From Stegostoma tigrinum (taxonomy: Eukaryota), in assembly GCF_030684315.1 (NCBI RefSeq), contig NC_081387.1, positions 16,771,409 to 16,835,408 on the forward strand: 64,000 bases of DNA. Direction: 5' to 3'. This document shows positions 8,945 through 50,762 of this stretch, one piece after another (the stretch's first letter is position 1; the number at the start of each line of letters is the position of its first letter). Below the pieces are notes generated by a model. It was given only the letters and a program-made list of their open reading frames with translations, did not search any database and was not told the origin of the DNA. The translations under genes and the position numbers were made by a program.

Positions 8945-9540
8945 TAGTAACACAGAGACATACAGCACGGAAACAGGCCCCAGTACAACTGGTCGATGCC
9001 ATCTGTAATCTCAAACTAAACTCATCCCACCTGCCTGCTCCTGGCCCATATCCCTCCAAACATTTCGTATTCATGTACTTCTCCAGATGTCTTTTAAATG
9101 TTGTAACTGTACACACTGCCTCTGGAAGTTCATTTCACATACGAACTACTGCCTGTGTAAAAAAAAACTGCCCCAATGACTTTTTTTAATCTTTCCCCTC
9201 TCACCTTAAAAATATGCCGCCTAGTCTTGAAATCCCCCACGCACAGGTAAGGATGCCTTTTCTATACCCCACTTGATTTCTTAAACCTCGAAGAAGGTTG
9301 AATGATGACCTTTTATGCTTGAGTGAAAATAGTCCCAGCCTAACCAGCCTCTGCTTATAACTCAAACAGTCCCCGTTCCCAGCAACATTCTGGTATATCT
9401 TTTCTGAACCCTCACCAGCTTGAGAAATATCTTTCCTATAATGGGGCAAAAAGACTTGGACACAGTACTCCAGAAGAGGCCTCACCAATGTCCTGTACAA
9501 TTGCGTTACGACATCCCAACTCCTATACTCAAGGGTCTCT
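8945..9540 (-). mobile_element. CR1/HER1 LINE 3' fragment
   Basis: LYRTLVRPLLEYCVQ..RLGLFSL. Confidence 0.8.
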
Positions 9541-9620
9541 TTGTTGGGGCTTAGTGCAGGCCCAATAGTGGAATATCATTTTTACCTGAGAAATGGAACC
9601 AATTACCAGACATGACTCAC

Positions 9621-9884
9621 TGTGTAAAATAAGATGATATGCATCGCTCCTCTTGCTGAACATATTTTCCACGGTGCAGGTGTAGGTGTCACAGTCTGCT
9701 TTTGTGGCTTTAACAATGATCAACTTGCTGTTGTTTTGTACTAACTGATAATGTTGGCCATTCCTTATCAAGTCAGGACCTTTCCTCCACAGAATGGAGC
9801 TCGCTTTCCCTGCAGTCATGTGACAGGTCAGTTCAACAGCGGAATCCACAAAGGTAGCTTTGATCAAAGGTTCTGCCAGTGGTT
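9621..9884 (-). CDS. Gene A exon 3: Ig C2-set domain
   Basis: 264-nt phase 1-1 exon EPLAEPLI..VELTC..ILWRK..NSKLII..DCDTYTCTVEN..LILH; acceptor ggcacag|, donor A|gtgagt. Confidence 0.92.
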
Positions 9885-9930
9885 CTGTGCCAAAGAATAA
9901 TTACTCAGGTAAACAGGTCTGAGCATGAGG

Positions 9931-13914: not shown

Positions 13915-14749
13915 GGTTTAATCCGAGGGTCACCTCACCACAGAGGGGGATTGGGTCAAGAACATGGGACCTTCGTAATGAACTCACGCTGTTGGCATCA
14001 CTCTGCATTACATAGCTAGATTGGTAGGAAAGTGGTTAGCTCAGTTGGCAGGGCAGTTGCTTTGGGTGCAGCGTGATGCCAATGGACATGGGTTCAATTC
14101 CTATATTTAGCTAATGTCACCATGAAGATCCCACTTTCTCAACCTTGCTCCTTCCCTGAGGTAAAACTCATCTCTCTGTCTCAATGAGAGAGCAGCCTCC
14201 AGGATTATGGTGACTAGTACAGTAACAAATCACAAGTCACAATTCCCAAGGAATTCCTCAATGATGGAATGACAGGTACAGCAGGACAACAGAAGCCGAC
14301 GGTCAATGTCTGTCAGTTTTTTCTTCCATCCTGATCAGTGGCTTTTATTTAGTCTTGAAAGAAGGCAAGCAGTATATGTTTGCTTGATGGAACAATCCAG
14401 AACAAGATGGAATTATCTTAAAAGCTACAGCTGGACCCTTTTACACACATATCATTTAAGTATTCCCCCCTCCCAATCCCACCATAGGAAGAATTGTGAA
14501 ATTGACTACTGGGGTCAGTCGAAATTTTCCAGACGAGATCAATAGGTTTCCCGCTGGGTCATGGAGCTGGCAGAAAGGCATGAAGCAGGTCAATGGAAAC
14601 CAGGCACAGATCAACCATGGAATGGTAGAACAGGTCCGAACAGCTGAATCGCTTATTCGTGTCCCAATTCAATGACAGAGTCCTCAAAACTGCTTCATGA
14701 TTTGAAACGTACGTCATTTTCAAAGTGATAAAGTATTGAAATCACTTAC

Positions 14750-15049
14750 CAATGAGTTTCAGATCCATGCTCCTGTTCCAGGTACCATTCACTGTGATGG
14801 TATATACTCCTTGGTCACTCGGTTTTAGACTGTCTACCATTATTGATCCATTGGATGCATTAAAACGTAAACGGGAATGGTAGTGTTTATTTGGTTTCTG
14901 TACTGGAGAATTTGGTATGTAATCCAAAATAGTAAGCAGTTTTCCACTGCTGTTTTTGAACGTCCATTCAACCTGACTGTCGCTGAGATTCGCTCCATAT
15001 TCAGGATCCAGTAAAACTGACGAGCCAATGGCAGCCACGACATTGCCCC
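14750..15049 (-). CDS. Gene A exon 2: Ig V-set domain without B/F cysteines (CD2/SLAM/CEACAM-N/HEPACAM type)
   Basis: 300-nt phase 1-1 exon GGNVVAAIGSSVLL..VEW..RLRFNASNGSIMVDSLKPSDQGVYTITV..DLKLI; DxGxY motif; donor G|gtaagt; acceptor after a polypyrimidine tract (ctggag|). Confidence 0.9.
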
Positions 15050-15235
15050 CTCCAGGTGATTGACATGAAAAACAGAAACAAAAGTAATCCATCAACATGT
15101 GAACATGAAGCATAGAGCAATTGTGAAGCAAAATTGTAACATTATGCCAGCGGGTGTCTGGAGACTAAAAAGCAAACAGTCCTTTGTGTAGTGTGCTTTA
15201 CCACCTCAAGATTTCAAAAGCTTTTTACAGCAAGT

Positions 15236-18200
15236 GAACAAAGCGTGAAGCTGGATGAATACAGTAGGCCAAGCAGCATCTCAGGAGCACAAAAGCTGAC
15301 GTTTCAGGTCTGGACCCTTCATCAGAGAGGGGGATGGGGAGAGGGTTCTGAAATAAATAGGGAGAGAGGGGGAGGCGGATCAAAGATGGACAGAGAAGAT
15401 AGGTGGAGAGGAAAGTATAGATGGGGATGGGGAGGTAGGGAGGGGATAGGTCAGTCCGGGGAGGGCGGACAGGTCAAGGGGGTGGGATGAGATTAGTAGG
15501 TGGGAAATGGGAGTGCGGCTTGAGGTAGACGGAGGGGATAGGTGAGAGGAAGAACAGGTTAGGGAGGATGGGACGAGCTGGGCGGGTTTTGGGATGCAGT
15601 GGGGGGGGGGGGGGGGAGGGGAAATTTTAGAGCTGGTGAGGTCCACATTTGCCTCTCCCAGACCTGCAAAGGACCCCTCTTGTTTTTTATCCTCCGTAGG
15701 ATCCAGAGACTGAACACCCAGTTCTACTCAGCTTTACTGGACACCAAAAATCGTAAGTACAACAAACTCACTGGCTCCTGCCACCTTAAACAGGATTCCT
15801 CCACCTCCCAGATCCCGAGCCTGTCCCTGCACCTCCCCAACAATGTACCCACCACCATTGACCACGAGGACACGGCCGGGTTGAGGTCACATCTGCCACC
15901 ACCAGGCACACCGCTTCCGGGACCGCGAACGCGACCGCTGCTGCAGTCACCGCCTCCACTTCCAGTTACAACACCACACACACCACCCTCACCGCTGCTG
16001 CCGCCGCCCACCCCTCTCCTCCCATCACCGACGTCGCATCGCCGACGCAACTCCGCCCAGCGCTGATGGAAACCCGCCCACCGCCGATGCCACTGCAACT
16101 CCGCCCACCACCGACAGAGCCCCGCCCACTGCCAACAGACCCCCACCCACCGCCGACATCGCTCCGCCCACAGCCAGCAACCCGAGAGACGACAGCCACA
16201 CTGAGCCGTGTCGAGTTTTTGCCATCCCCACAGACCTCCCACTGACAGAAGACGAACGGTCAGTCCTGAGCAAGGGGCTCACCTTTGTCCCCCTCCACCC
16301 ACACATCAACGAATACCAGTCACGTTTGGACATCGAGCAGTTTTTCCGCCCCCTCCACGATTACTTCTCTAACCGTGAGCCTAACCCTCCCTCCACTGAC
16401 CCCTTCACCCGCCTCCAACACAAGTCCTCTTCCTGGACACCACCCCCAGGCCTCCTTCCCTCCCTCAGCCTCTTCATCTCCAACTGCCGTTGAGACATTA
16501 ACCGCCTCAACTTCTCCACCCCTCTCACCCACTCCAACCTCTCCCCCGCAGAACGGGCAGCCCTCCGCTCCCTCCCCAACCTCACCATCAAACCCGCAGA
16601 CAAGGGAGGCACAGTTGTGGTATGGCTCACTGATCTCTACATCGCCGAGGCCAAATGCCAACTGTCCGATGCCTACTCCTACCGCCCCATGGATCACGAC
16701 CCCAAACCTGAACACCAAACCATCCACAGCCTCGTTACCTCAGGTGACCTCCCACCCATGGCCTCCAACCTTACGGTTCCCCAACCCCACACCGCCCACT
16801 TCTATCTCCTTCCCAAAATCCACAAACCTGCCTGCCCTGGTCGACCCAATGTCTCCGCCTGCTCCTGTCCCACCAAACTCATCTCCACCTATCTGGACTC
16901 CATTTTCTCCCACTTGGTCCAGGAATTCCCCACCTACGACAGTGACACCACCCACACCCTCCACCTCCTCCAGAACTTCCAATTCCCTGGTCCCCAGCAC
17001 CTCATTTTCACCATGGGCGTCCAGTCCCTATACACCTGCATTCCACATGCAGCTGCCCTCAAGGCCCTCCGCTTCTTCCTGGCCCACAGGCCCGACCAGT
17101 CCCCCTCCACTAACACCCTCATCTGCTGAGCCGAACTCATCCTCACGCTCAACAACTTTTCTTCCCATTCCTCCCACTTCCTACAGACAAAGGGGGTGGC
17201 CATGGGTACCCGCATGGGCCCAAATTATGCCTGCCTCTTTGTAGGTTACGTGGAACAGTCCCTCTTCCACACCTACACTGGCCCCAAACCCCACCTCTTC
17301 CTCCGTTACATTGATGAGTGCATCGGCACCGCCTCTTGCTCCCAAGAGGAGCTCGAACAGTTCATCCACTTCACCAACACCTTCCACCCCAACCTGAAGT
17401 TCACCTGGGCCATCTCCAACACATCCCTCACCTTCCTGGAGCTCTCAGTCTCCATCTCAGGCAACCAGCTTGTAACTGATGTCCATTTCAAGCCCACCAA
17501 TTCCCACAGCTACCTAGAATACAACTCCTCCCACCCACCCTCCTGCAAAAATTCCATTCCCTATTCCCAATTCCTTCACCTTCACCGCATCTGCTCCCAG
17601 GATGAGACATTCCACTCCCGCACATCCCAGATGTCCGCGTTCTTCAAGGACCGCAACTCCTCCCTCCCACCGCAGTGGTCGAGAACGCCCTCAACCGTGT
17701 CTCCCGCATTTCCCGCAACACATCCCTCACACACCACCCCACCAAACTCCGGATACAACACATCATCCTCTGACACTTCCGCCATCTACAATCCGACCCC
17801 ATCACCCAAGACATTTTTCCATCCCCACGCTTGTCTGCCTTCTGGAGAGACCACTCTCTCCGGAACTCCCCTGTCCACTCCACACTGCCCTCCAACCCCA
17901 CCACACCCGGCACCTTCCCCTGCAACCGCAGGAAGTGCTACACTTGCCCCCACACCTCCTCCCTCACGCCCATCCCAGGTCCCAAGATGACTTTCCATAT
18001 CAAGCAGATGTCCACCTGCACATCTGCCAATGTGGTATACTGCATCCGCTGTTCCCGTTGTGGCCTGCTCTACATCGGGGAAACCAAGCGGAGGCTTGGG
18101 GACCGCTTTGCAGAACACCTACTTTCAGTTCACAGTAAACAACTGCAACTCCCAATCGCGAACTATTTCAACTCTCCCTCCCATTTCTCAGACGACATGT

Positions 18201-18760
18201 CCATTCTGGGCCTCCTGCAGTGCCACAACGATGCCACCCGAAGGTTGCAGGAACAGTAACTCCTATCCCCCTTGGGAACCCTGCAGCCCAATGCTATCAA
18301 TGTGGATTTCATCAGCTTCAAAATCTCCCCTCCTCTTAACATATCCCAAAACCAGCCCAGCTCATCCCCACCTCCCTAACCTGTCCTTCCTCCAACCTCC
18401 TCCCACCTCAAGCCCCACCACCCATCTCCTACCTGTTAACCTTATTCTGCCCCCTTGACCTATCCGTCCTCCCTGGACTGACCTATCTCTTCCCTAGCTC
18501 CTTACCTACACTCATCTTTACTGGCTCCATTCCGACCTCTTTGACCTGTCTGTCTCCTCTCCACCTGTCTTCTTCTCTATCAGTCTTCTATCTGCCTCCC
18601 CTCTCTCTTTATTTACTTCAGAACCCCGTTCCTCTCCCCCATTTTAAGAAGGGTCTCAGCCCAAAACATCAGCCTTCCTGCTCCTCTGACGCTGCTTGGC
18701 CTGTTGTGTTCATCCAGCTCTACATCTTGTTATCTCCAGCATCTGCAGTTCCTGCTATCT
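15236..18760 (+). mobile_element. Penelope-like retroelement (Neptune-type), degenerate RT + Zn finger + GIY-YIG, with an inverted copy of its 3' end at the 5' side
   Basis: FYLLPKIHK, GVAMGTRMGPNYACLF, LRYIDE, CNRRKCYTC, NVVYCIRCSRCGLLYIGETKRRLGDRFAEH; stops and frameshifts; 15236-15649 is the reverse complement of approx. 18298-18735. Confidence 0.92.
15298..15325 (-). ncRNA. Minimal hammerhead ribozyme motif in the inverted terminal repeat of the Penelope element
   Basis: CUGAUGA-A-GGGU(CCAG)ACCU-GAAA-CG-UC. Confidence 0.62.
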
Positions 18761-23291: not shown

Positions 23292-23446
23292 CCGCAATCC
23301 CGTCCCTGGCAGCCTCGGGCTGAGGGAAAAAAAAAATCAGCGAGCCCCGCAGACCGCGGGATCGGCCTCCATCAGCTCCGACACGCCGTCAGGTTCAACC
23401 AACACCCACTTCCGTGTCTGAGCGGGCGGAGAGCAGGGGTGGAGAC

Positions 23447-25404
23447 AGACTGCATTCCCCTGTACACAGCGGGGGCGGGGTAACACTGTCATCCCCTGTA
23501 CACAGCGGGGGCGGGGTAACACTGCAATCCCCTGTACACAGCGGGGGCGGGGTAACACTGTCATCCCCTGTACACAGCGGGGGCGGGGTAACACTGCAAT
23601 CCCCTGTACACAGCGGGGGCGGGGTAACACTGTCATCCCCTGTACACAGCGGGGGCGGGGTAACACTGCATTCCCATGTACACAGCGGGGGCGGGGTAAC
23701 ACTGTCATCCCCTGTACACAGCGGGGGCGGGGTAACACTGCATTTCCATGTGCACAGCGGGGATGGGGACAGTCTGCCATCCGCAATACACAGTGGGGCT
23801 GGTACAGTCTGCCATCCCCTGTACACAGCAGAGGTGGGGACAGTCAGCCAACCCCTGTACACAGAGTGGGCGGGGACATTCTGCCATCCCCTGTACACAG
23901 CGGGGGCGGGGACAGTCTGCCAACCCCTATGCACCGTTGGGGTGGGGACTGTCTGCCATCCCCTGTACACAGCGGAGATTCGAACAGTCTGCCATCCCCT
24001 GTACACAGCAGGGGGGGGTAGAGTCTGCCATTCCTTGTACACAGGAGACGTGGGGACAGTCTGCCGTCCCCTGTACACAGCCGGGGTGTGAACAGTCGGC
24101 CATCCCCTGTAAACAGCAGGGGTGGGGACAGTCGGCCGTCACCTGTACACAGGAGACGTGGGGACAGTCTGCCATCCCCTGTACACGGCGGGTCTGGGGA
24201 CAGTCTGCCATCACCTGTACACAGCAGGGGCCGGTAGAGTCTGCCATTCCCTGTACACAGGAGACGTCGGGACAGTCTGCCATCCCCTGTACACGGCAGG
24301 TCTGGGGACAGTCTGCCATCACCTGTACACATAGTTGGTGGGGACAGTCTGCTGTTTCCTGTACACAGAGAGGTTGGGGACAGTCAGCCATCCCCTGTAC
24401 ACAATGGGGCTGGGACAGTCAGCCATCCCCTGTGCACAGCGGGGGTGGGGACAGTCTGCCGTCCCCTGTACACAGAGAGGGTGGGGACAGTCTGCTGTCC
24501 CCTGTACACCGCAGGGGTGGGGACAGTCTGCCGTCCCCTGTAGACAGCTGGGGCGGGTAGAGTCTGCCATTCCCTGTGCACAGGTGATGTCTGGACAGTC
24601 TGCCATCCCCTGTACATGGCGGGTCTGGGGACAGTCTGCCATCCCCTGTACACAGCCGGGGTGGGGACCATCTGTTGTCTCCTGTACACAGCGGATGTAG
24701 GGACCATCTGTTGTCCCCTGTACACAACAGGGCTGGGACAGTCAGCCATCCCCTGTGCACAGCGGGGGTGGTGAAAGTCAGCCATCCCCTGTACACAGCA
24801 GGGATGGGGACAGTCTGCCATCCCCTGTGCACAATTGGGCTGGGACAGTCAGCCATCCCCTGTGCACAGCGGGGATGGGGACAGTCTGCCATCCCCTGTA
24901 CACAATGGGGCAGGGACAGTCAGCCATCCCCTGTGCACAGCGGGGATAGGGACAGTCAGCCATCCCCTGTGCACCGCGGGGATGGGGACAGTCTGCCATC
25001 CCCTGTACACAATGGGGCAGGAACAGTCAGCCATCCCCTGTGCACCGCGGGGATGGGGACAGTCTGCCATCCCCTGTATACAGTGGGGCTGGGACACTCT
25101 GCCATCCCCTGTACAGAGTGGACATGGAGACAGTCTGCCATCCCCTGTACACAGGACAGTCAGCCATACCCTGTACATAGTGGGCGTGGGAACAGTCTGC
25201 CATCCCCTGTGCACAGCCAGGGCAGGGACGGTCTGCATCCCCTGTGCATAGGACAGGTAGGGACAGTCTGCCATCACCTGTACACAGCGGGGGTGGGGAC
25301 ACTCGTACGCGGGGGGATTTGGGGATAGTCTGTCATCACCTGTACACAGCAGGGAGGAAACAGTGTGGTCTGAACTATACAGTGAGGGAGGATACAATCT
25401 GACC
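23447..25404. repeat. 35-36 bp G-rich minisatellite (about 2 kb), unit approx. cccctgtacacagcgggggcggggacagtctgccat
   Basis: Directly visible tandem units; the first 8 (23451-23738) are near-perfect 36-mers, the rest diverged; explains the many repetitive ORFs. Confidence 0.97.
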
Positions 25405-28637: not shown

Positions 28638-28772
28638 TCAGGTCCTCCGTATCTGAATCCGAGCATGTTCAGTAATCTCATCGGTACCGTACATTATCTT
28701 TCCTGTAGCTTCCGTCGACTCATACAACTTCATCTCACTGAATGTCACGACAGAGTTGCTAGATAATGAATT
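28638..28772 (-). CDS. Gene B last coding exon: cytoplasmic tail NSLSSNSVVTFSEMKLYESTEATGKIMYGTDEITEHARIQIRRT*
   Basis: Strong acceptor tttgtttctgttctttggtttcag|; phase 0 matches exon 4 and gives the only long open frame; TGA at 28640-28638. Confidence 0.68.
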   Translation of the reverse strand, partial: NSLSSNSVVTFSEMKLYESTEATGKIMYGTDEITEHARIQIRRT

Positions 28773-30089
28773 CTGAAACCAAAGAACAGAAACAAAGTCA
28801 GAGATTTATGAGGAGTTGCTTAGATAAATCATATAAATAGATTGAATCATCCTAAGTGGAAGAGGAGACGAACTATTAACAGAGAAACATCTCCGACATT
28901 AATCTTGTAACTTTCAATTGTCTTTGAAAAGAGCTAATGTATTATGTAATTACCTTTTCCCTGACAATATATTAGCTGAACTTAATTCTGAACAATCAGG
29001 AGTAACCTCAGGATTTTGTTCCCATCTCTCCCTTGTACGAATTTGATACATCTGACTTTATGATTCGCGTTTTAGAAACGTCGTCTGCACATTCACAATT
29101 AGCCTGTTTTTCACATAGTCTTTTTAAAATTTTATTTTTTAAAATGATTTTGCTTGAAGGGCTTTTTTGTTTAGGACGTACATTAGGATGTTCTTTTGTA
29201 TAAGTAGTCCTGGTAAACTGCTCATGCCTGAAGTCATGATGAAGTGTACAGAGGTGTGCTGAAATATTGAATGTAAGTGTGGATGAGTAACTTAAACGTT
29301 TTAATTTCAATAGCGAGCAGAGTCAGATATGATTAAGGTGTAAAAGGTATGCTAATTCAATGTTGTCTTTTTAACATCTTTGACCAAAGGTACAATTTGT
29401 CTCATACACCCAGGTGAGGAAGGGTCACCGGACACAAAACGTTAACTCATTTTTTCATCACACATACTGCCAGACCTGCCGAGCTTCTCTGGCAACTTCT
29501 GTTTTTATAATTAACTTTTTGTTCGCTCTATTTCAACAATTGAAATAGTAGCATTTCAGTAAACTGTAAGCATTGCAGATCACAATGAAGTGGAAAGAGT
29601 TCTTCATGATCCATGCTCTACCTCCCCAGTAAACATGTCAGATAATACAGAAACGTTATGAAAGGGGGCAGGTTAAGGTTGACTCTTGCCATTTTATTGT
29701 GTGAAATAATCATAGTCTGATAACTTTAATGTGCCTCTTAGCCCTGGCAGTTCTTCTCTATCATGAATGGAGACCTGAGGGAGTAGACAGAGTGCTACAA
29801 CCAGGAAGTTCCAGCATATCTTTACTGTTGAGTGTAGTCGACAAGCAAAGGGATGGGTAAAACCATCCATCAAATTAGTTCTGTGGAAACTTGTGAGATT
29901 CAAATTCATCTTATTTTGTGGAGCAAAGTGGGTGTTGCCAAACCATCTGTCAGTTCTCTGCCCTGCTCATTATTCAGCTCTGCTGAAGCAGAGAGTGCAG
30001 AATATAGGATGGGTTGTGCAACAGGTAGTCGACTCAGTAACTTCCACTTTGGCCCATACTGATTAGTTTTGATTAACTTGGTCATTGAG

Positions 30090-30408
30090 AGGCACGGTGG
30101 ATCAGTGGTTAGCCCTGCTGCCTGACAAGAGCACGGACTCAGGTTTCATTCCAGCCTTAGGTGACTGTCTGTAGGGAGTTTTCATTTTCTCCTAGTAACT
30201 GTTGAGTGCTTTGGTTTTCTGTCACAGTCCAAAAAGATACAGATTGGGTAGACTGGCCATGCTAAATTGTCTGTCGTATCTAGAGGTATTGAATTGGTGG
30301 ATTAGCCATGGTAAATGTGGGCTACCTGGACAGGCTGGGACGAGGTTTGGGCAGGATGCTTTTTATAGGGTCAGTGCAGGCTCTTTCTATGCTGTAGGGA
30401 TTCTATGA
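30090..30408 (+). mobile_element. HE1-type SINE (diverged)
   Basis: ggcacggtggatcagtggttagc head, gggattctatg tail. Confidence 0.8.
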
Positions 30409-31200
30409 TTTTACTTCAACGCATTTTTAATCCAAATTATAATTAGATGAGGTTTCCATAATTACTCAGTAAATTAATCTCTCTATTCCTGGATAGAAGT
30501 AATACAGTGGTCTCTCTCAAGAGTCTTGAAGTAATTTTGAATCAAAGAATATCTGGAAAATTACAGGCAGTCTCTGTTATCACCTCGCTGATTTCTTTCA
30601 AAAATCTATGTTACATGACTTCAGACCTGGTGAATTGTGTTTTCAATTCCATTGGTTTTTTTCCAAAATCAAACCCTTTTCTGTACCCAGCTCCATCAAT
30701 TTCTCCACATCATCCCCTACAATATTTTTATTTATATTCCTACCATCATTCTCACCATTCCTTCTGTTAACCTCGCCACCAGATTGGTTTACATTTAAAC
30801 AAGACCTGAAGAGGTAGGGGTTTTATGGCCAGACTTTCACCTATTGTTGTAATTTTTCTAAATCTTGAATCAGCATCTTTTTCTGACTTTCAGTATTCAC
30901 TGACTTTCATCGATGGCCGAAGGGCCTGTTCTGCGCTATATTATTCTATGTTCTATGACTTAACATTTATAGTAAGAGCGTGAGATTCTAAATGCAATTA
31001 TTGTCAAGCATGGGACGTAGATATTGATTAGGATATCAATTTGTGTGTTATCCTTGATATGAAACTTCGGACCTTTGATATATATTATATTTATATATAT
31101 GCTTATACATCTTATTTATATTTATAAGCTTATGCTTTTTTAGTGGCATCTTTCTATCTGTAAATAGTAATGGACAAACCACAAACAATCTATTCCAGAT

Positions 31201-31325
31201 TTCTGAAGAAGGTCCAGACGCAAAATGTCAGCTTTCCAGCTCCTCTGATGCTGCTTGGCCTGCTGTGCTCATCCAGCTCTTCACCTTGTTATCTCAGATT
31301 CTCCAGCATCAGCAGTTCCTACTAT
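31201..31325 (+). mobile_element. Penelope-derived 3'-end fragment
   Basis: Same family as 18640-18760; flanked by tattccagatt / tataccagatt. Confidence 0.7.
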
Positions 31326-31541
31326 ACCAGATTAGGTGTCTTTCTATTGTGCACCTTTGCTGATGGTTGAACAGGCCAATCCTTAAGAGGCAGGGTCTGC
31401 CACAAATGCCACACATGAAGCCACCAATTGTAATTTTGGGTTGCTTTCAGCAATAGCTTGTATTACTAAGCCAGGAAGTGCATACTGGCCCAAAAGACAC
31501 ATTCCTCATTTTTCTCTGTAATGACATATCAATGTTTTGGG

Positions 31542-32127
31542 CTCTCATGTCGAGATTGCAAGCAATGTGTAAGCAAAGCTGTCCCCTATCACGCAGCTGC
31601 TGGTCTGTGTTCCTGCTTTCTCTCGTATCTCCACCAGCAATGACAACATAGACTTGTGCCTCATCACACACTTTGTCTTTAATGGCCCAGTATACAAACA
31701 GATCAATGGCTCACCCATGGGGTCACCCATCTCAGGACTCATTGCAGAGACAGTCATGCAAAGTCTAGAACATACTAACCTCTCCCCCATTTCAATCTAA
31801 ATTGTGGATCCCGTACCTTAACAACACATTTGCCATTACTAAACACAACAAACCAGAAGAGATGCACCACCTCATCAACAATGTATTCACCAGGTAAGAG
31901 AGAAAGAAAGCACAATCACCTTCCATTTCTGGATGTCAGAGTTGAACATATAACCAACGGGGAGTTCCAAACCTCAGTATACAGGAAAGCAACTCACACT
32001 GACCAAATTCTCAACTTCCACAGCAACCACCCCAAGGGCAACAAACAAAGTTGCATGAGGGCCCTATTTAAATGGGCCACCACTCACTGCAACATGCCAG
32101 AACTACGCAGGAAAGAGGAAGAGCACC
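31542..32127 (+). mobile_element. Duplicated, deletion-truncated copy of the Penelope-like fragment
   Basis: Near-identical to 34710-35295 (offset 3168). Confidence 0.85.
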
Positions 32128-34709
32128 AGTTGTCTGAGGCTGGAATTGAACCTGGGTCCCTGGTGCTATGAGGCTGCAGTGCTAACCACTGAGTCACTGT
32201 GCCGCCCCAAATAGGCATGATAGAACATTCTGGTTTTCTGACCAGTGGAAACACAGGTGTCAGTTGCATTGGCCTACATAAACCTCACCACCCTAACTTG
32301 TTCGCTCTTCCTGTCCAGAGAACAAGGCAGTTAATTCTTCAGTGTTTATTTAATGTACATCTCAGCTGCCATTGAGATAAGGTGGTTCCAGTTTTTAACC
32401 TTTATTTCCAGGTTTACCATGACCTCAAGTTGACTGGACCTTCTCCCAAACTGAAAATTGTAATGAACGAGTGAGAAGGATTTTAAGATGAGACCATTAT
32501 TGCCAATTTTGTTGCAGGGTGGAGGTCAGTTTGAACAGGATGTTTTTTGTTTTAAATGCTCACACTCTGTAATGAAGCACAATCGGTCAGTTAAGAGGTC
32601 ACTTGTGTTTCCTCTCAGTTATTTTCAAGTTTTGATGTTAGGTGATACCTTCACATTGCACAGCATTGCCGGGGTTTTGAGTAAATATTGATTGGAAATA
32701 AAAATTAAGACTTGGCACAACCTACGCTCAATACTAACTGGGACATATTACTGGAACATTTATTGTGGTTACTTAAGCACTAAAGAATTAAACACCTTAT
32801 GCTCTGGAAGGAAGGGCTAAGAATATATTTGCCCACAAACATTAACTTGAAACTTAAAGTTCCATTTAGCTGCAAGCTGTTTTTCTGTGTCAAACAAAGA
32901 GTCAGAAGGATTTCACAAGCAAGTATTACAAGGCACCTTACCATTGTGTAAAAAAAAAATGAGCATATGCCACTTGGAAATTTCTCACCTTTCAGCTATT
33001 ATAATCTTGATTCTTTAGCCACATTACATAAAATTGAAGGTTCATTCTTTGATGGGCCTTTTTTCTCAATAGTGACCTTTTGAGAAAGCTGAACTGGACA
33101 AGTGTCATGATTTCTATTGTCCCACCTGTGAAAAGTAATGGCTTGAGATATAGGGAGGATTGGTGAAGGGTTTTGGTCTTACTGATGTTGAGTAAGAGAC
33201 CATGCTTTTGTATAGAGAGCTAAAGAAGTTGAGGGCAGTCAGAGCCATTGACAGTATTTTATGCCGATAACAAGTTATGAATGTGCTGAATGGTCATGTT
33301 ACTCTTAGTTCTCAGCCTTTTGAGATTGAAGATTTTCTGTTGAATCAAAACTCAGTCACGACCTGTTGGAGAAGTTGGTTCTGAGGAACATCCATGACCA
33401 CTGTTAGTCCTTTGCTAACTTTTTATTATTTTTGTTTTTACGCTTTATCAATTTTGAATTTTGTGTGCCAGAAATGACCTATGGATTTTGGCACAACTTG
33501 TGTTTAAAGGAAAATAACATGCCAATCAAGCTTTGTTTGTTTATGAGGCCAGGCCAGGAGGTAGGATGTGCCTTCATTAAAAATGTTCTAACAGATACAG
33601 GAAAAATGGGAGGTGCATCATTTTCAAACAGCTAGCAGAGGATGGCTATTGATAAGGTCAGTATTTGGGAATTGGTTCCAGCAAGTCTGGAAAGGACCCT
33701 ATGTTCAAACAACAAATGACAATTGACAATTTTGTTATTTTCTTTCATTTGCCCCTTAACTTTATTTTTAACAATCCTTTGTGTAGCTGGAGGCTGAAAA
33801 CAAATGCTTCTGGCTTAAAGCACAGATATTAATCAGATTGTTGTTCTGTCTAGTTTTCTCTCTGCTGAAGTTATTGTGTATTTAATGAATAGTTAAGTCT
33901 GGAAATTAATTATTCATGAAATCTAGGTTTGATTATTCAAAGTCTGATTAGGACCATTGGAGTGACTATTTGGGCACCTTTGACAGTTTAGTTTTACTGT
34001 ATTGTGAAGACGGAGGCTGTAAAGCTGATTTGGTTCTACTGTCTGCCTCTGTGTCATAACATCAGATTTAGGTAAATAGTGAAGAGGTGATGCAATGACA
34101 CAGACTTGCTTTATTCCAATTACAAAAAGGTTTAGATGCCAGTCCTTCGTAATGGATGGTTACTGCCGTACTGTCATGCAGAAATCAAAGGATAATAATA
34201 TATTTTGTTCAACATCCAGATCACTGGTCAACTTTCTAAAGGGCTTCGCAGCTGAAAAAGTAAAACTGGAGTCAATGGAAAACAGACAAAATAATTCCAA
34301 CAGATAAAGCTATTTCTAGCACATGTTTGCAGTTGTTGGTCAATCATCTCAGGTCATCACTGCTACTCATGGAGTTCCTCAGATGTAGTGCCCTCAGTCC
34401 AACTATCTTTAGCTGCCTCATCAATGACCTGGCCTCCATTATGGATAGAGATGTTTGCTCATGATTTCACAATTTTCAGCCATGTTCGCAAATCTTCAGA
34501 TACTGAAGCAGTCCATTTCCAAATGCAGCAAGACCTGGACAATACCCAGATTTCAGCTGACAATTGACAAATAACAAGCATGCCACAAAAATGCTAGACA
34601 AAGACCATCTCCAACAAGACAGAATCTAACTTTTGCCCATTGATATTCAATGGCATTACTATCACTGTATTCCCAACTGTTAGCATTCTGCCGGTTACAA
34701 CTAACTTGG

Positions 34710-35990
34710 CTCTCATGTCGAGATTGCAAGCAATGTGTTAGCAAAGCTGTCCCCTATCATACAGCTGCTGGTCTGTGTTCCTGCTTTCTCTTGTAGCTCC
34801 ACCAGCAATGACAACATAGACTTGTGCCTCATCACACACTTTGTCTTTAATGGCCCAGTATACAAACAGATCAATGGCTCACCCATGGGGTCACCCATCT
34901 CAGGACTCATTGCAGAGACAGTCATGCAAAGTCTAGAACACACTAACCTCTCCCCCATTTCAATCTAAATTGTGGATCCCGTACCTGGACAACACATTTG
35001 CCATTACTAAACACAACAAACCAGAAGAGATGCACCACCTCATCAACAATGTATTCACCAGGTAAGAAAGAAAGAAAGCACAATCGCCTTCCATTTCTGG
35101 ATGTCAGAGTTGAACATATAACCAACGGGGAGTTCCAAACCTCAGTATACAGGAAAGCAACTCTCACTGACCAAATTCTCAACTTCCACAGCAACCACCC
35201 CAAGGGCAACAAACAAAGTTGCATTAGGGCCCTATTTAAACGGGCCACCACTCACTGCAGCATGACAGAACTTCGCAGGAAAGAGGAAGAGCACCTATAC
35301 AAAATCTATGCTATGAACGGATCTCCCCACAACTTCATCTGCAGATGCCTACCAAGCACACAACAAGAGGACACAGTATGCTCTAACACATTGTGCCACA
35401 CTGCCCTATGTCAAGAACATATCAGAACTGACAACGAGACTCCTACGGCCACTAGGAATCATGGTGGCACACAAGCCCACAGCTACTCTACGACAAACAC
35501 TCACAAGGATTAAAGACCCCATTCCCACAAAATGCAGAATCAATGTAGTTTACAAACTACCATGCAACGACTGCCACAAACATGACATCAGAAGGAAACT
35601 AGCCATCCAAATACATGAACATCAGCAGGCAGCAAAACGACATGACAGACTTTCATTCGGACAATGAGAGCCATCAGTTTAACTGGGACAACGTAATCAT
35701 AGTAGCCTAAGCCAAACATAGAAATGCACGGAAATTCCGAGAGGCATGGTTCACAACCCATAATACCATCGACAAACATATAGATTTGGGCCCCATATAC
35801 AAACGCATACAGAACAAAACAGGAAATTACACTACTCACCATAACAGTATAAATTCCAAGTGGAGTAGAACAACATCTGATTATGTTACCTAGCCTGGTG
35901 ATGAAACTCCTGAATGAGAACAAGCCAGCTTGGCAAGCAAGTCAACAACCTTACCGAAAACCCGAGCTAAAGATCTTTGCTGAAAGATCT
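34710..35990 (+). mobile_element. 5'-truncated Penelope-like element (Poseidon/Penelope-type RT + GIY-YIG relic)
   Basis: YKQINGSPMGSPISG, LPFLDV, VYRKAT..LNFHSNHP, NVVYKLPCNDC; degenerate hammerhead-like motif at 35877-35910. Confidence 0.85.
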
Positions 35991-36284
35991 TTGCTTAAAT
36001 CAAAATCCTGTGTATGGCCACAATTCCTATTGTTGTGTGTACAACTTCAACATTTAACTTGAAGTTGACTATGTAAGCATTCAGATTGGAAATGACACAT
36101 GTGAACTATTAAGTAGATGTGTACTGTGAAGAACGTAGACCTGGATAGTTCTGTCTGTCCCCATACTAGTTACCTTGCATTCAGCAACTGACTAGAGGTG
36201 ACATTACAGGGAACTTAAGTTATCTCAGGGGACTGAAAATAGTATTAATTGTGTTACTAAAAGTTCTGTGTACCATTAACATGT

Positions 36285-36598
36285 GATTAGATTCCCTACA
36301 GTGTGGAAACAGGCCCTTCAGCCCAACAAGTCCACACCACCCCTTGGAGCATCCCACCCAGACCTATCCCCCCATAACCCACACACCCCTGAACACTACA
36401 AGCAATTTAGCATGGCTAATCCACCTAGCCTGCACATCTTTGGACTGTGGGAGGAAACCGGAGCACCCGGAGGAAACCCACGCAGACACAGGGAGAATGT
36501 GCAAACTCCACACAGACAGTTGTCTGAGGCTGGAATTGAACCTGGGTCCCTGGTGCTATGAGGCTGCAGTGCTAACCACTGAGTCACTGTGCCGCCCC
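36285..36598 (-). mobile_element. HE1-type SINE
   Basis: Full-length reverse copy; only its head end is retained in duplicate unit A (32127-32208). Confidence 0.85.
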
Positions 36599-38719
36599 AA
36601 ATAGGCATGATAGAACATTCTGGTTTTCTGACCAGTGGAAACACAGGTGTCAGTTGCATTGGCCTACATAAACCTCACCACCCTAACTTGTTCACTCTTC
36701 CTGTCCAGAGAACAAGGCAGTTAATTCTTCAGTGTTTATTTAATGTACATCTCAGCTGCCATTGAGATAAGGTGGTTCCAGTTTTTAACCTTTATTTCCA
36801 GGTTTACCATGACCTCAAGTTGACTGGACCTTCTCCCAAACTGAAAATTGTAATGAACGAGTGAGAAGGATTTTAAGATGAGACCGTTATTGCCAATTTT
36901 GTTGCAGGGTGGAGGTCAGTTTGAACAGGATGTTTTTTGTTTTAAATGCTCACACTCTGTAATGAAGCACAATCGGTCAGTTAAGAGGTCACTTGTGTTT
37001 CCTCTCAGTTATTTTCAAGTTTTGATGTTAGGTGATACCTTCACATTGCACAGCATTGCCGGGGTTTTGAGTAAATATTGATTGGAAATAAAAATTAAGA
37101 CTTGGCACAACCTACGCTCAATACTAACTGGGACATATTACTGGAACATTTATTGTGGTTACTTAAGCACTAAAGAAGTAAACACCTTATGCTCTGGAAG
37201 GAAGGGCTAAGAATATATTTGCCCACAAACATTAACTTGAAACTTAAAGTTCCATTTAGCTGCAAGCTGTTTTTCTGTGTCAAACAAAGAGTCAGAAGGA
37301 TTTCACAAGCAAGTATTACAAGGCACCTTACCATTGTGTAAAAAAAAATGAGCATATGCCACTTGGAAATTTCTCACCTTTCAGCTATTATAATCTTGAT
37401 TCTTTAGCCACATTACATAAAATTGAAGGTTCATTCTTTGATGGGCCTTTTTTCTCAATAGTGACCTTTTGAGAAAGCTGAACTGGACAAGTGTCATGAT
37501 TTCTATTGTCCCACCTGTGAAAAGTAATAGCTGGAGATATAGGGAGGATTGGTGAAGGGTTTTGGTCTTACTGATGTTGAGTAAGAGACCATGCTTTTGT
37601 ATAGAGAGCTAAAGAAGTTGAGGGCAGTCAGAGCCATTGACAGTATTTTATGCCGATAACAAGTTATGAATGTGCTGAATGGTCATGTTACTCTTAGTTC
37701 TCAGCCTTTTGAGATTGAAGATTTTCTGTTGAATCAAAACTCAGTCACGACCTGTTGGAGAAGTTGGTTCTGAGGAACATCCATGACCACTGTTAGTCCT
37801 TTGCTAACTTTTTATTATTTTTGTTTTAACGCTTTATCAATTTTGAATTTTGTGTGCTAGAAATGACCTATGGATTTTGGCACAGCTTGTGTTTAAAGGA
37901 AAATAACATGCCAATCAAGTTTTGTTTGTTTATGAGGCCAGGCCAGGAGGTAGGATGTGCCTTCATTAAAAATGTTCTAACAGATACAGGAAAAATGGGA
38001 GGTGCATCGTTTTCAAACAGCTAGCAGAGGATGGCTATTGATAAGGTCAGTATTTGGGAATTGGTTCCAGCAAGTCTGGAAAGGACCCTATGTTCAAACA
38101 ACAAATGACAATTGACAATTTTGTTATTTTCTTTCATTTGCCCCTTAACTTTATTTTTGACAATCCTTTGTGTAGCTGGAGGCTGAAAACAAATGCTTCT
38201 GGCTTAAAGCACAGATATTAATCAGATTGTTGTGCTGTCTAGTTTTCTCTCTGCTGAAGTTATTGTGTATTTAATGAATAATTAAGACTGGAAATTAATT
38301 ATTCATGAAATCTAGGTTTGATTATTCAAAGTCTGATTAGGACTATTGGAGTGACTATTTGGGCACCTTTGACAGTTTAGTTTTACTGTATTGTGAAGAC
38401 GGAGGCTGTAAAGCTGATTTGGCTCTTCTGTCTGCCTCTGTGTCATAACATCAGATTTAGGTAAATAGTGAAGAGGTGATGCAATGACACAGACTTGCTT
38501 TATTCCAATTACAAAAAGGTTTAGATGTCAGTCCTTTGTAATGGATGGTTACTGCCGTACTGTCATGCAGAAATCAAAGGATAATAATATATTTTGTTCA
38601 ACATCCAGATCACTGGTCAACTTTCTAAAGGGCTTCGCAGCTGAAAAAGTAAAACTGGAGTCAATGGAAAACAGACAAAAAAATTCCAACAGATAAAACC
38701 ATTTCTAGCACATGTTTGC

Positions 38720-39650
38720 AGTTGTTGGTCGATCATCTCAGGTCATCACTGCTACTCATGGAGTTCCTCAGATGTAGTGTCCTCAGTCCAACTATCTTTA
38801 GCTGCTTCATCAATGACCTGCCCTCCATTATGGATAGAGATGTTTGCTCATGATGGCCCAATTTTCAGCCATGTTCACAAATCTTCAGATACTGAAGCAG
38901 TCCATTTCCAAATGCAGCAAGACCTGGACAATACCCAGATTTCAGCTGACAGTTGGCAAATAACAAGCATGCCACAAAAATGCTAGACAAAGACCATCTC
39001 CAACAAGACTGAATCTAACTTTTGCCCATTGATATTCAATGGCATTACTATCACTGTATTCCCAACTATTAGCATTCTGCGGGTTACAATTAACTTGGAA
39101 TTCTGCAGCATGTAACTCACCAAAACCTCACCACCTTTGAGAAGGCACAAGTCATGAGTGTGGGTCAATACTCCTCACTTGCCTGGACGTATTCAGCACC
39201 AATAACACTCAAGAAGCTTGATACCATCCAGGATAAAGTAGCTACTCGAATGACACCACTTTCACTCCCTCTACCATCGATACTTAGTGTGCATCACCTA
39301 AGATGCATAGCAGAAATTCATGACAGGCCCTTAGACAGAATTTTCCAAACCCATGACCATTAGCATCTAGAAGGACAAGAGCAGCAGATACATTGAAACT
39401 CTATCACCAGCAAATTCCCTTCTGGCCATTCATCATCCTGACTAGGAAATATATCACAATTTCTTTGGTGTTTTTGGGCCAAAACCCTGGAACGCCCTCC
39501 CTAATGACATTTGGATTACCTACAACAGCTGGAGTTCAGTATTTCAAGAAGGAAGCTCTGCACCGCTTTCTCAATGGTAACTAGGGACAGGCAGTAAATG
39601 CTAGAATTACCCTAGCCGGCACATTCCTACCCCATAAATGAATAAAAACA
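38720..39650 (+). mobile_element. CR1/L2-group LINE RT and 3' relic (5' part duplicated at approx. 34330-34709)
   Basis: Decayed GVPQGSVLGP..FINDL..MFAxD motifs; 3' tail ending aatgaataaaaa. Confidence 0.7.
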
Positions 39651-39988
39651 AATACTTTTTTTTAAAAAGCTAGGCTCAGGATGATGCAAGTCATTCCCAA
39701 TAAGAACCTTCCATGCAATTTGTTATTCCTCTTGCAATGTAATTTTAGATTTTTCAGGAAAGAAGTCTATTGAACACCAAGTAGTTTTGTAATTGCACAT
39801 TAAATGTAAATCTCCTGCAAGAAGTACATCCCAAAAGGAAAGGCAAGCGTTATGGAAAAATAAACAAGTGTTTTGCACTCTGTAATACAGCCAGTGCAAG
39901 CATGATGGGCCAAATAGCCTCCTTTTGCACTGAAATAATTTTGTGAAAAAAACAGTACTCTTATCTTTCCACAGAATATTTTACTTAC

Positions 39989-40044
39989 CCAACCCCTCTG
40001 AGCAGTCTTTTTCTTTACTGTTTGTTTCTGAGTTCGATTACAAC
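39989..40044 (-). CDS. Gene B exon 4: basic juxtamembrane cytoplasmic segment (GCNRTQKQTVKKKTAQRGW)
   Basis: 56-nt phase 1-0 exon; acceptor tttttcccctttag|, donor TGG|gtaagt. Confidence 0.75.
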
Positions 40045-40803
40045 CTAAAGGGGAAAAATCTCTGTTAATTTTCCGTGGGGATTGGCCGACTGTTGTCCCC
40101 ACAACACACTATTTTACATCAATCACTCCACAATAAAATGATCCTGCAGTTTAATAAAAGATGGATTAATGTAGAAGTTGAAGATCTCATATTGCCATTT
40201 CATTTTCACAGGTCATTTATGTGACTGAATTTCATGGGTCTGCACTGCATGTGCATGTTGGTTAAATTGTAAATTAGGATTTTCTCTTCTGAATGCCCAA
40301 GGTTAATATTGCAGACTATTGCTATTCAGTAAATGGCTCTGTTTGCTTATTTTACTATTTTTTTTTCTGCCCTACAGTTGTTTTAATAAAGCTGTTCAGA
40401 TGCTATTATACAACTCTAGAGCAGGCAGGATTTGAAGTTGGGTCTCCTGGGTCAGAGGCTGGGCACTACCATGGCACCACAACGATATAAAACATTTCTT
40501 GCACTCAATCCCTTTAGAATTCCTGTCCTACCCCTCCCTACAGCTGCACTGTACAGCACTTTGGGTACAAGACAACAAAAGGTTGGAAATGAAGTAGACA
40601 ATACCTCAAAAGCAAATAAGGAATAAAGAAAAAGATCAATTTATTTCCATGTTACTGAACTGAACTTACTTGGAACAGAGAAAAATATTCCTTCATCAAT
40701 TTCCCTGACTTACAGATGAGCATTTTCCATCCGTGTTGCAATAATAAATGCAGAGTCAGCACGTGTCAGGCACCTGAGACTGTCTCACAACATGACCACT
40801 TAC

Positions 40804-40905
40804 CTGTTTGTGTCTTCACAGTGAAACACAAGAAGATCAAAATAACAGCAAGGCTAGCATAGCGAATTTTGGCTTCAGCTCTTGGTGCTCGTTTTGCCTC
40901 TGTAA
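40804..40905 (-). CDS. Gene B exon 3: stalk plus transmembrane segment (VTEAKRAPRAEAKIRYASLAVILIFLCFTVKTQT)
   Basis: 102-nt phase 1-1 exon; acceptor ttttcttaatgcgcag|, donor ACA G|gtaagt. Confidence 0.78.
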
Positions 40906-41369
40906 CTGCGCATTAAGAAAAGATTTTGTCATTACACTGAAATAGCAGGAAAGCTCACTTCTTTTTTCATCCCAAGACATTCATTTGGGACAGGAGGAAG
41001 CGTTTGTGTCCTTCAGCTACATTAACGTTTCCAATTCATTTCCTCATCTTAGCTCGCTGCCCTGATTGAATTAAATGAACTTTTTACACTGTTATTCAGA
41101 AAGATGATGATCATAAACATTTTTTGCTTAATGTAGTTTGTAACCTGTCCTACAAAGTAACTTTGTATGGCTTCTACAGAGATTACAATGTTTTGTAGAC
41201 TTTAGATACTTCAGTTGGGTGTAGATATCAGATGAATAAATTGAATCATTTACATAAATATTAAGAAATGGGAGACAGGGTGGGCTTTTGACCCTTTGGA
41301 CTTGTTCTGCCATTCACCAAGATCATGGCTGACCTTTGACTCCATTCATACGATCAATCCATTGACCTT

Positions 41370-48303: not shown

Positions 48304-49063
48304 CATTAACTGTCCTCCTATGTGAATGGGAAACTGTGGGGATAAGTCAGGGTGAGAAGGATATTTGCAGCTGATTCTCTCACTTTAAAACGAATGGGTC
48401 AAAAACTAGATTAAAGGCATAACTAAATCTTGTAACTCCGGCTCAGTGACCTGAGAAGGGATGTCCGGATTTTGTGAAGGGAATGACTGTTAGGCACGAG
48501 GTCCAACCCTAACATTTCCTGGTCAGATCAGTGGGGCCGATGGAATGATTTTACAATACTCCACCTTCCTGTTGCTTCCTCTAACCCCCCATCCTCTGAA
48601 ATCTGTGTTTCACCAGCCCCCACCCCATCCATTTCTGCATTCCTGAGTTTCCTGGGTTAGATATTCCCAGCGCTGCTGTCCAGATCCTAGCTCTGAGAAT
48701 TCCCGGCCCGAGCTCCCCTAAACCTCTGCATTTCTTGCCCCGTTCAGTGAGGGGAAGGGAGGGGGCTGTCCCCGAACCCTCCCTCTTTGGTCACCAGTCC
48801 TGACACTATCCTGGGTGGGCCGGGGGGTTATCCGTCTGTGAGGTGTCTCGGGAACATTTCACTGGTAATGAAACTTGAGTGCGAGAGACACCGTTTTCAT
48901 CATCAACGTTCCCGTTAAAAAAAGTGAAAATAGAAAATGAGAAACATTTTGTGACCCATGTTCACATTTTCGTACAATACCCAACAGCTGACAACCAGTC
49001 AAAATAAAGACATTTTGTTTTGGAAATTTGTTCATAAAATTAAATAAAACGAACCAACACTAC

Positions 49064-49438
49064 CCATTCCGCCGCCCGTGCCGTTCCGCACTGTTAATAT
49101 GACCCTGGCCATTTCTGTTCCCTCCGAGTGACTGATAGACAATTCATAAATCCCGCCGTCATTGAAATGTAAATCCCGCAGCAGCAATGAAGCATTCTCT
49201 GGGAAATGAACGACTCGGTGTTTGTCGTCACCGGGAACCGGCAGGTAGTGACAGAGCTCCGAGCGCCTGCTGTCTCTGTTCGATATGCACCTATAGTCCA
49301 CTATTCTGGTTCCAGCTCTGTTCCACCTGATCCGCAGGTAACCGCCTGGGTCTGACAGATTGTAAGAGACGGCGAGCAGCGCAGACTGACCAACGGTTCC
49401 ATTCACGCGGTCCTGGTCCACCCTCAGTGTTACAGCAG
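49064..49438 (-). CDS. Gene B exon 2: HEPACAM/VSTM5-like Ig V-set domain
   Basis: 375-nt phase 1-1 exon; NGTVGQSALLAVSY..IRW..ENASLLLRDLHFNDGGIYELSI..VILTV resembles the HEPACAM V domain; acceptor ctccgccttcag|, donor G|gtagtg. Confidence 0.9.
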
Positions 49439-50686: not shown

Positions 50687-50762
50687 CGAGCAGTGTGAAG
50701 GGATTGAGAGCAAGAAGACAGACTCCACACATTCTGGCGATCCCATTTCTCCGCGGTGACAT
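50687..50762 (-). CDS. Gene B exon 1: signal peptide MSPRRNGIARMCGVCLLALNPFTLL
   Basis: ATG at 50762, hydrophobic leader, phase-1 donor CTC G|gtgggt; joins the V exon in frame (..TLLA-AVTLRV). Confidence 0.72.

Follow-up and report, generated by a model that had tools for sequence, protein, structure and literature searches.

We analysed a stretch of 64,000 nucleotides from Stegostoma tigrinum (contig NC_081387.1, positions 16,771,409 to 16,835,408 of the forward strand; hereafter the window, whose own numbering is used unless a contig is named). It contains gene B, a five-exon gene on the minus strand that encodes a type I receptor with a single V-type immunoglobulin (Ig) domain. We lean towards the view that gene B is an activating receptor coupled to FcR-gamma and derived from an ancestor that carried both a charged transmembrane segment (TM) and tyrosine motifs, with Arg168 of the TM pairing with the Asp of FcR-gamma or CD3-zeta. 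A preliminary description of the region had reported an Arg-bearing TM together with tail motifs whose tyrosines are replaced, and had taken gene B for an inhibitory receptor converted into an activating one. The observation is confirmed by our analysis, and its interpretation is partly supported.

Position and age of the transmembrane arginine

The TM opens with the peptide KIRYASLAV (40870-40844, minus strand), in which the Arg168 codon occupies 40864-40862. The hydrophobic core extends from Y169 to V183 (40861-40817) and is closed by the stop-transfer residue Lys184. Arg168 is located at the outer, N-terminal start of the TM, as described earlier, 16 residues ahead of K184. Exactly the same distance to the cytoplasmic basic stop is found in 16/16 Arg-bearing members of the subfamily; in ten Arg-free paralogues the equivalent column lies inside the hydrophobic run, at about the fourth of 19 residues.

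The Arg-Tyr TM is common to sharks of five orders and to rays, and both R168 and Y169 are invariant in all 15 aligned Arg-Tyr shark and ray proteins. These 15 proteins fall on one side of an unrooted TM/juxtamembrane tree with a support of 99/98, a grouping that is partly circular, as the Arg-Tyr columns are included in the alignment. A V-domain tree of 40 proteins places 11 shark sequences in one clade (support 99/97), with Heptranchias at its base; ten of them have a K-(I/V)-R-Y TM and one, a catshark paralogue, has an Arg-free TM. Comparison of five sharks, one per order (order assignments, like the species tree used for step counting, are presumed), reveals that the TM is the most conserved part, with 82.0% identity against 69.4% for the V domain and 54.6% for the last exon. 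Since sharks and rays have this Arg-Tyr TM in common, and Mustelus and Heterodontus combine the Arg with tyrosine motifs, the Arg predates the loss of the tyrosines, and gene B represents not a fresh conversion but the late state of an old dual-feature receptor. A recent conversion of an inhibitory partner does not agree with this order of events.

Fate of the tail tyrosines

The cytoplasmic tail of gene B has 67 residues, encoded on two exons beyond the TM exon. The peptides quoted in the preliminary description are all present on the minus strand, namely VTFSEM and TEHARI (Table 1), KLYEST (28730-28713) and IMYGTD (28697-28680). Phe217 in VTFSEM is encoded by TTC (28742-28740) and His242 in TEHARI by CAT (28667-28665), each a single change from a Tyr codon. 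Taken from this sequence alone the motif pair is modest evidence: among 20,000 shuffles of the exon, an ITIM-like near-miss (ITIM standing for the immunoreceptor tyrosine-based inhibitory motif) arises in 52% and an ordered motif pair in 3.8%. We accept the pair because orthologues have Tyr at both columns, that is, on homology and not on shuffling.

The homologous last exon is modelled in eight shark species including this one, and the catshark model reads through an intron; orthologue tails were taken from automated RefSeq models. Column 217 is Phe in four carpet sharks, Arg in Cetorhinus and Tyr in Mustelus, Heterodontus and Heptranchias (3/8), and column 242 is His in six species, Tyr in Mustelus (1/8) and Phe in Heptranchias. 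Mustelus retains both tyrosines along with the Arg, and Heterodontus has the Arg with one motif. Four aligned Arg-free ray paralogues carry the distal Tyr in 4/4 and the proximal Tyr in 3/4 cases, the latter with Arg at +3; relatives with intact tyrosines and no TM Arg, which the preliminary description had pointed to, are thereby found. Since orthologues and Arg-free ray paralogues have Tyr at 217 and 242, it is the ancestral residue at both positions, later replaced by Phe and His, as had been suggested. The losses came after the origin of the Arg and were piecemeal by lineage.

The inhibitory consensus is (S/I/V/L)xYxx(I/V/L) for an ITIM or TxYxx(V/I) for an ITSM, the immunoreceptor tyrosine-based switch motif (PMC12151841). 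The tail of gene B matches neither. Its remaining tyrosines are only those of KLYEST and IMYGTD, which fit none of ITIM, ITSM and YxxM. The consensus is found in the orthologue peptides VLYSEI and TEYGRI. The ITIM plus ITSM layout proposed for this tail holds for the distal site, which fits an ITSM (Mustelus has TEYGRI; position -2 is T or I, and position +3 is I in 7/8), but not for the proximal one. There, VTFSEM with Tyr restored gives VxYxxM, which fails the ITIM consensus, and only Heterodontus has VLYSEI. Because Met ends the motif at +3 in 6/8 orthologues, the proximal motif was mostly YxxM rather than a strict ITIM. Neither of the remaining tyrosines is conserved: that of KLY is present in 4/4 carpet sharks and missing from the 4 others, and Y, H or C occurs at the IMY column. 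Of the 44 columns of the last exon, 7 are invariant, and its length is kept; the 8/8 shark models that have the exon all retain its open reading frame, the place of its stop and the phase of its splice site.

In several Arg-free ray paralogues there is an additional, related exon for the tail, which bears YAEL, YSEV or YTEI. Searched with a profile of this ITIM-bearing exon, some 655 kb surrounding the loci of the family, gene B introns included, gave no copy (best E 6.3). Searches of this genome with the tail and TM exons returned gene B alone, plus one stop-containing TM match (E 9.8), and a homologue search with TM and tail, covering short proteins, returned one Cetorhinus isoform. A second IMYGTD at window position 5386 (plus strand) was rejected as a chance match in unrelated sequence.

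Proposed coupling to an adaptor

Two zeta-family TM exons are present in this genome, one matching FcR-gamma best (its best PDB match) and the other CD3-zeta. In both, the Asp is located 16 residues ahead of the first basic residue; as Arg168 and the adaptor Asp are both 16 residues from the basic stop, the charges would meet at equal depth. A predicted complex of the gene B TM with two FcR-gamma TM chains scored 0.09 against a mark of 0.34, with no controls folded.

The stingray protein P0011 has a V domain nearly identical to that of an Arg-free paralogue, a Pro>Arg change at the column of Arg168 and a tyrosine-free tail of 30 residues. An approximately unbiased test rejects placing it with the Arg-Tyr clade (p 0.017), and it gained the Arg independently, with loss of its tail. 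P0011 and P0128 of the stingray combine a recent Pro>Arg change and tail truncation beside the near-identical tyrosine-motif protein P0012; judged from their sequences, these proteins are the clean conversion that had earlier been pictured for gene B. Among 31 scored proteins, from which four outgroups and five rows whose tails are apparent read-throughs had been dropped, a YxxI/L/V motif is kept in 16/16 Arg-free and 3/15 Arg-bearing members, and 4/4 independent pairs agree in this direction (p 0.125).

These observations suggest how gene B may have arisen. From an ancestral elasmobranch receptor with tyrosine motifs, a form with an Arg-Tyr TM would have emerged that had dual potential, like KIR2DL4, and this combination of Arg and motifs is still present in Mustelus. 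As the signal would now come from the adaptor, the tyrosines would become dispensable and drift away lineage by lineage, to Phe in carpet sharks, to Arg in Cetorhinus, to His or Phe distally and to stops in rays. A ligand bound at the V domain would then cluster the immunoreceptor tyrosine-based activation motifs (ITAMs) of FcR-gamma and engage Syk-family kinases without braking by SHP-1/2.

However, several points weigh against coupling to FcR-gamma or against this course of events. The NxxR motif, which is tied to FcR-gamma binding (PMC2413239), is missing: gene B reads AKIR with Lys at -2, and Asn at -3 occurs in 0/15 Arg-Tyr proteins. The likeness to the TMs of GPVI, FcalphaRI, LILRA and NKp46, on which the preliminary description relied, therefore does not reach as far as their NxxR motif. 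Gene B also lacks the short or absent tail on the TM exon that characterizes NxxR-type receptors. The hydrophobic core after Arg168 is only 15 residues long, so that Arg168 may merely mark the membrane boundary. In catfish IpLITR 2.6b a Lys>Ala change left FcR-gamma binding unaffected (PMC4810170); a TM charge is therefore not always what recruits the adaptor. The tail of gene B retains its length along with many invariant residues, and a dead tail would have no need of either. The tyrosine columns took 2 steps each against a last-exon mean of 1.59, without acceleration; because they change no faster than the exon, there is no case for targeted loss, and the step counts fit relaxed constraint, with no indication of selection against tyrosine. 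The independent-pairs test for Arg against YxxI/L/V is unable to reach significance. The direction of origin, from Arg-free to Arg, is unrooted. A profile of the four Arg-free ray exons alone misses the last exon of gene B, so that their homology is linked via the shark orthologues. Finally, the gene B transcript including the last exon is a predicted model.

Pairing within the family

The next V domains in this genome are 35-43% identical to that of gene B, and with the catshark Arg-free paralogue as query gene B is the best match and nothing else exceeds 42% (both counts being lower bounds). On these grounds gene B seems to have no strict twin, near-identical and opposite in signalling, among the genes found in this genome. 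At the level of the family, however, charged-TM and tyrosine-motif members with closely related ectodomains do occur, as in stingray P0011/P0012, carpet-shark P0054/P0036 and catshark P0007/P0010. The earlier idea of a paired family thus stands insofar as the family has Arg-free tyrosine-motif and Arg-bearing tail-poor members, and no near-identical inhibitory partner of gene B was found in this genome.

A sister subfamily about 0.33-0.45 Mb from gene B contains an ITIM-bearing gene and an Arg-TM exon, and its carpet-shark orthologues have near-identical V domains with opposite tails. Three close V exons of this subfamily are located at G000:C44:16.36-16.49 Mb (L001, L002, L006-L008), one gene having an ITIM-like LTYSLL tail exon and one an Arg TM exon (LLLAR); the two are likely a true pair in this genome. 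A distant single-V member (L011, G000:C44:19504873-19506296) has a textbook NIIR TM exon followed by a stop, and would be a cleaner candidate for FcR-gamma coupling than gene B.

V domain and family identity

The V domain of gene B has Cys76 and Cys88 only, without the B-F strand disulfide, and four N-glycosylation sequons. In its predicted model it is all-beta, with predicted local distance difference test values mostly 70-92, and the TM and tail are of low confidence. By sequence it matches solved structures weakly (JAML, CEACAMs, CAR), a fold search with the model returned generic IgV domains only (best at 15-22% identity), and database labels on relatives read HEPACAM-like or A33-like. Profile matches being weak only, gene B appears to have no specific orthology to HEPACAM, CD2 or CEACAM. 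CD33-related Siglecs combine V-set and C2 domains with inter-domain and intra-sheet disulfides; membership in this group was rejected, as gene B has a single V domain and no C2 exon between V and TM. Membership in the PD-1/CD28 family, by the criteria of PMC11599192, was also rejected, as the canonical V disulfide and the YxC motif of complementarity-determining region 3 (CDR3) are missing and the F strand reads GIYELS.

Homology searches found relatives of gene B in sharks, rays and birds, with no mammalian match named among them. The bird relatives (P0004, P0024, P0185 and others) have 1-6 tandem V domains and tyrosine-motif tails and are all uncharacterized; with them, the family reaches beyond cartilaginous fish. 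Our literature search, covering papers other than subscription papers and supplements, found no paper describing the family and 0 papers for six of its locus identifiers, and the accessible part of PMC6795676 contains nothing bearing on it. This family of paired immune receptors is seemingly undescribed.

Alternative explanations

It is possible, though on the whole unlikely, that gene B does not signal and acts in adhesion or as a decoy, in which case Lys-Ile-Arg-Tyr serves as an interfacial anchor or as a dock for a non-ITAM partner and the tyrosines decayed as no inhibitory signal was needed. The missing NxxR motif and the short core of 15 residues are in line with this, and the nearest solved relatives by sequence are adhesion molecules. 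Apparent single-copy retention over five shark orders, unlike the fast turnover of activating partners, and the failure to find a close inhibitory twin point the same way. However, the independent Pro>Arg at the same column in a stingray paralogue that also lost its tail, the match in depth between Arg168 and the adaptor Asp, and the second subfamily, which pairs near-identical V domains as Arg/short-tail and ITIM forms, all speak for adaptor coupling instead.

Signalling by the tail itself, through the remaining tyrosines or a Tyr-independent motif, appears improbable. Here the ancestor would have been costimulatory, with a proximal YxxM of PI3K type (YxxM binds p85) and a distal ITSM, and such an origin would suit the Met at +3 in 6/8 orthologues, the KLY tyrosine of all four carpet sharks and the invariant columns and constant length of the last exon. 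But neither leftover tyrosine fits a known motif among ITIM, ITSM and YxxM, the KLY tyrosine is missing in the four other sharks, the IMY column is variable, and several ray Arg-Tyr models have short tyrosine-free tails. We regard it as very improbable that the last exon is outside the main transcript, the degenerate motifs being a relic and the protein ending earlier: the frame, stop and splice phase are kept in every shark model that includes the exon, and the RefSeq model is identical to ours. This is so even though no RNA run containing gene B was found, the models of P0142, P0146, P0148 and P0007 skip or read through tail exons, and the 11-kb intron contains a near-perfect duplication.

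The known innate activating receptors of cartilaginous fish are few. Gene B adds a candidate FcR-gamma client and leads to an entire cluster of paired V-domain receptors that carry no annotation beyond 'uncharacterized'. The broader proposal, that an undescribed paired family of jawed vertebrates (sharks, rays, birds) holds an FcR-gamma-coupled receptor with a non-NxxR interface and an Arg-Tyr TM predating the shark-ray split, is plausible but somewhat doubtful. If true, the stages of the switch (Arg together with two motifs, one motif or none) would all survive in living shark orders, a natural series for how a dual receptor turns purely activating. Mammalian activating partners are young and have a rapid turnover. 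An Arg-bearing receptor that persists as an apparent single orthologue over five shark orders, with graded motif loss, would allow 'charge first, ITIM loss later' to be tested directly on natural variants, although the charge-first logic itself is already known.

Gene model and neighbourhood

The gene B product (P0005) is identical, including the last exon, to the RefSeq protein XP_048376267.1 ('uncharacterized', 250 residues). The last three exons have AG/GT ends and splice in frame. Use of a second in-frame donor in the IgV exon, after 49064, would make the protein 247 aa long, as in close orthologues. A profile from which carpet-shark sequences were excluded recovers the last exon with E 1.5e-11 among 27,682 six-frame segments. 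The 39989>28772 junction rests on splice signals and on RefSeq models of seven other shark species, which join the homologous exons in the same frame.

Table 1. Coding exons and tail motifs of gene B (window coordinates).
Feature	Position	Strand	Remarks
Signal-peptide exon, coding part	50687..50762	-	25 codons, phase 1; start codon ATG at 50762; encodes residues 1-25 of P0005
IgV exon	49055..49438	-	Pfam V-set E 2e-7
Stalk and transmembrane exon	40804..40905	-	phase 1/1, AG/GT ends
Juxtamembrane cytoplasmic exon	39989..40044	-	phase 1/0; homologous exon present in orthologues
Last coding exon	28638..28772	-	44 residues and stop; holds both degenerate motifs
Degenerate proximal motif VTFSEM	28731..28748	-	ancestrally V/S-L-Y-S/T-E-M/I; residues of eight sharks at this column: F,F,F,F,R,Y,Y,Y
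Degenerate distal ITSM/ITIM-type motif TEHARI	28656..28673	-	residues of eight sharks at this column: H,H,H,H,H,Y,H,F

A search with the V exon listed no RNA run containing it. Four runs that contain gene B have flat depth over intron and exons and no joints at 39850-41100; they therefore behave as DNA runs of one sample, possibly the source of the assembly. In these four runs the TM exon has zero differences (one run misses part of the exon). The 11-kb last intron contains near-perfect duplications (window 31540-35295 and 36517-39098; 2583 bases at 98.6% and 588 bases at 97.3%), which are either recent or an assembly artefact.

Downstream of gene B lies gene A, a V + C2 Ig gene (window 14742-15164 and 9529-9900, minus strand). 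Its bamboo-shark relative, model P0152, runs on into several hydrophobic segments, which suggests a multi-pass membrane anchor; a tblastn search for such exons here found no match. About 26 kb past the window end, an inverted V exon (G000:C44:16861447-16861803, plus strand) is 97.5% identical to that of gene A, and the C2 exon following it has an identity of just 45%, which points to recent gene conversion affecting the V exon. A tandem minisatellite of about 2 kb with a unit of about 36 bases lies between genes A and B (window 23430-25400), and a GC-rich retrotransposon-like insertion with broken reverse-transcriptase-type frames lies upstream of the gene A V exon (window 15700-18300). At G000:C44:16.62-16.67 Mb (L026-L031), about a dozen tandem repeats are spaced at about 4.7 kb, each with the same long interspersed nuclear element (LINE) fragment.

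Comparison with known receptors

KIR2DL4, whose TM contains an Arg, resembles the Mustelus and Heterodontus orthologues in having a charged TM with a kept tyrosine motif. In contrast to its two C2 domains, gene B has a single V domain without disulfide and has lost both motifs. KIR2DL4 has a dual function and uses the FCER1G adaptor (PMC2213150). Arg at the N-terminal start of the TM is shared by gene B with GPVI, FcalphaRI, LILRA, NKp46, OSCAR and Xenopus XFL TM1 (PMC2413239); unlike these NxxR-type partners, gene B has no Asn at -3, and its long tail lies on two further exons instead of being short and on the TM exon. A V domain without the B-F disulfide is common to gene B and V-set receptors of the CD2/CEACAM/HEPACAM/CTX type, with the Xenopus paired CEACAMs (PMC5112662), but activating CEACAMs have an ITAM of their own. 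With the shark PD-1/CD28 family gene B shares a single V domain, a stalk, a TM and, in the tail, two tyrosine motifs spaced by about 25 residues (PMC12151841, PMC11599192), and differs in lacking the YxC F-strand/CDR3 motif and the canonical cysteines.

The closest parallel is in the order of events. In rat Ly49s3 the charged TM residue is inferred to have come first and the ITIM loss after, and activating KIR and Ly49 receptors are dated to about 3.5-31 million years (PMC2213150). Gene B agrees with Ly49s3 and primate activating KIR in the charge preceding ITIM loss and in dual-feature intermediates among the relatives (PMC2213150). However, its fold and family differ, its Arg-Tyr TM spans sharks and rays, and its intermediates persist in separate orders. 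The route taken by gene B is likely of the known Ly49s3/KIR2DL4 type, but unusually long-lived.

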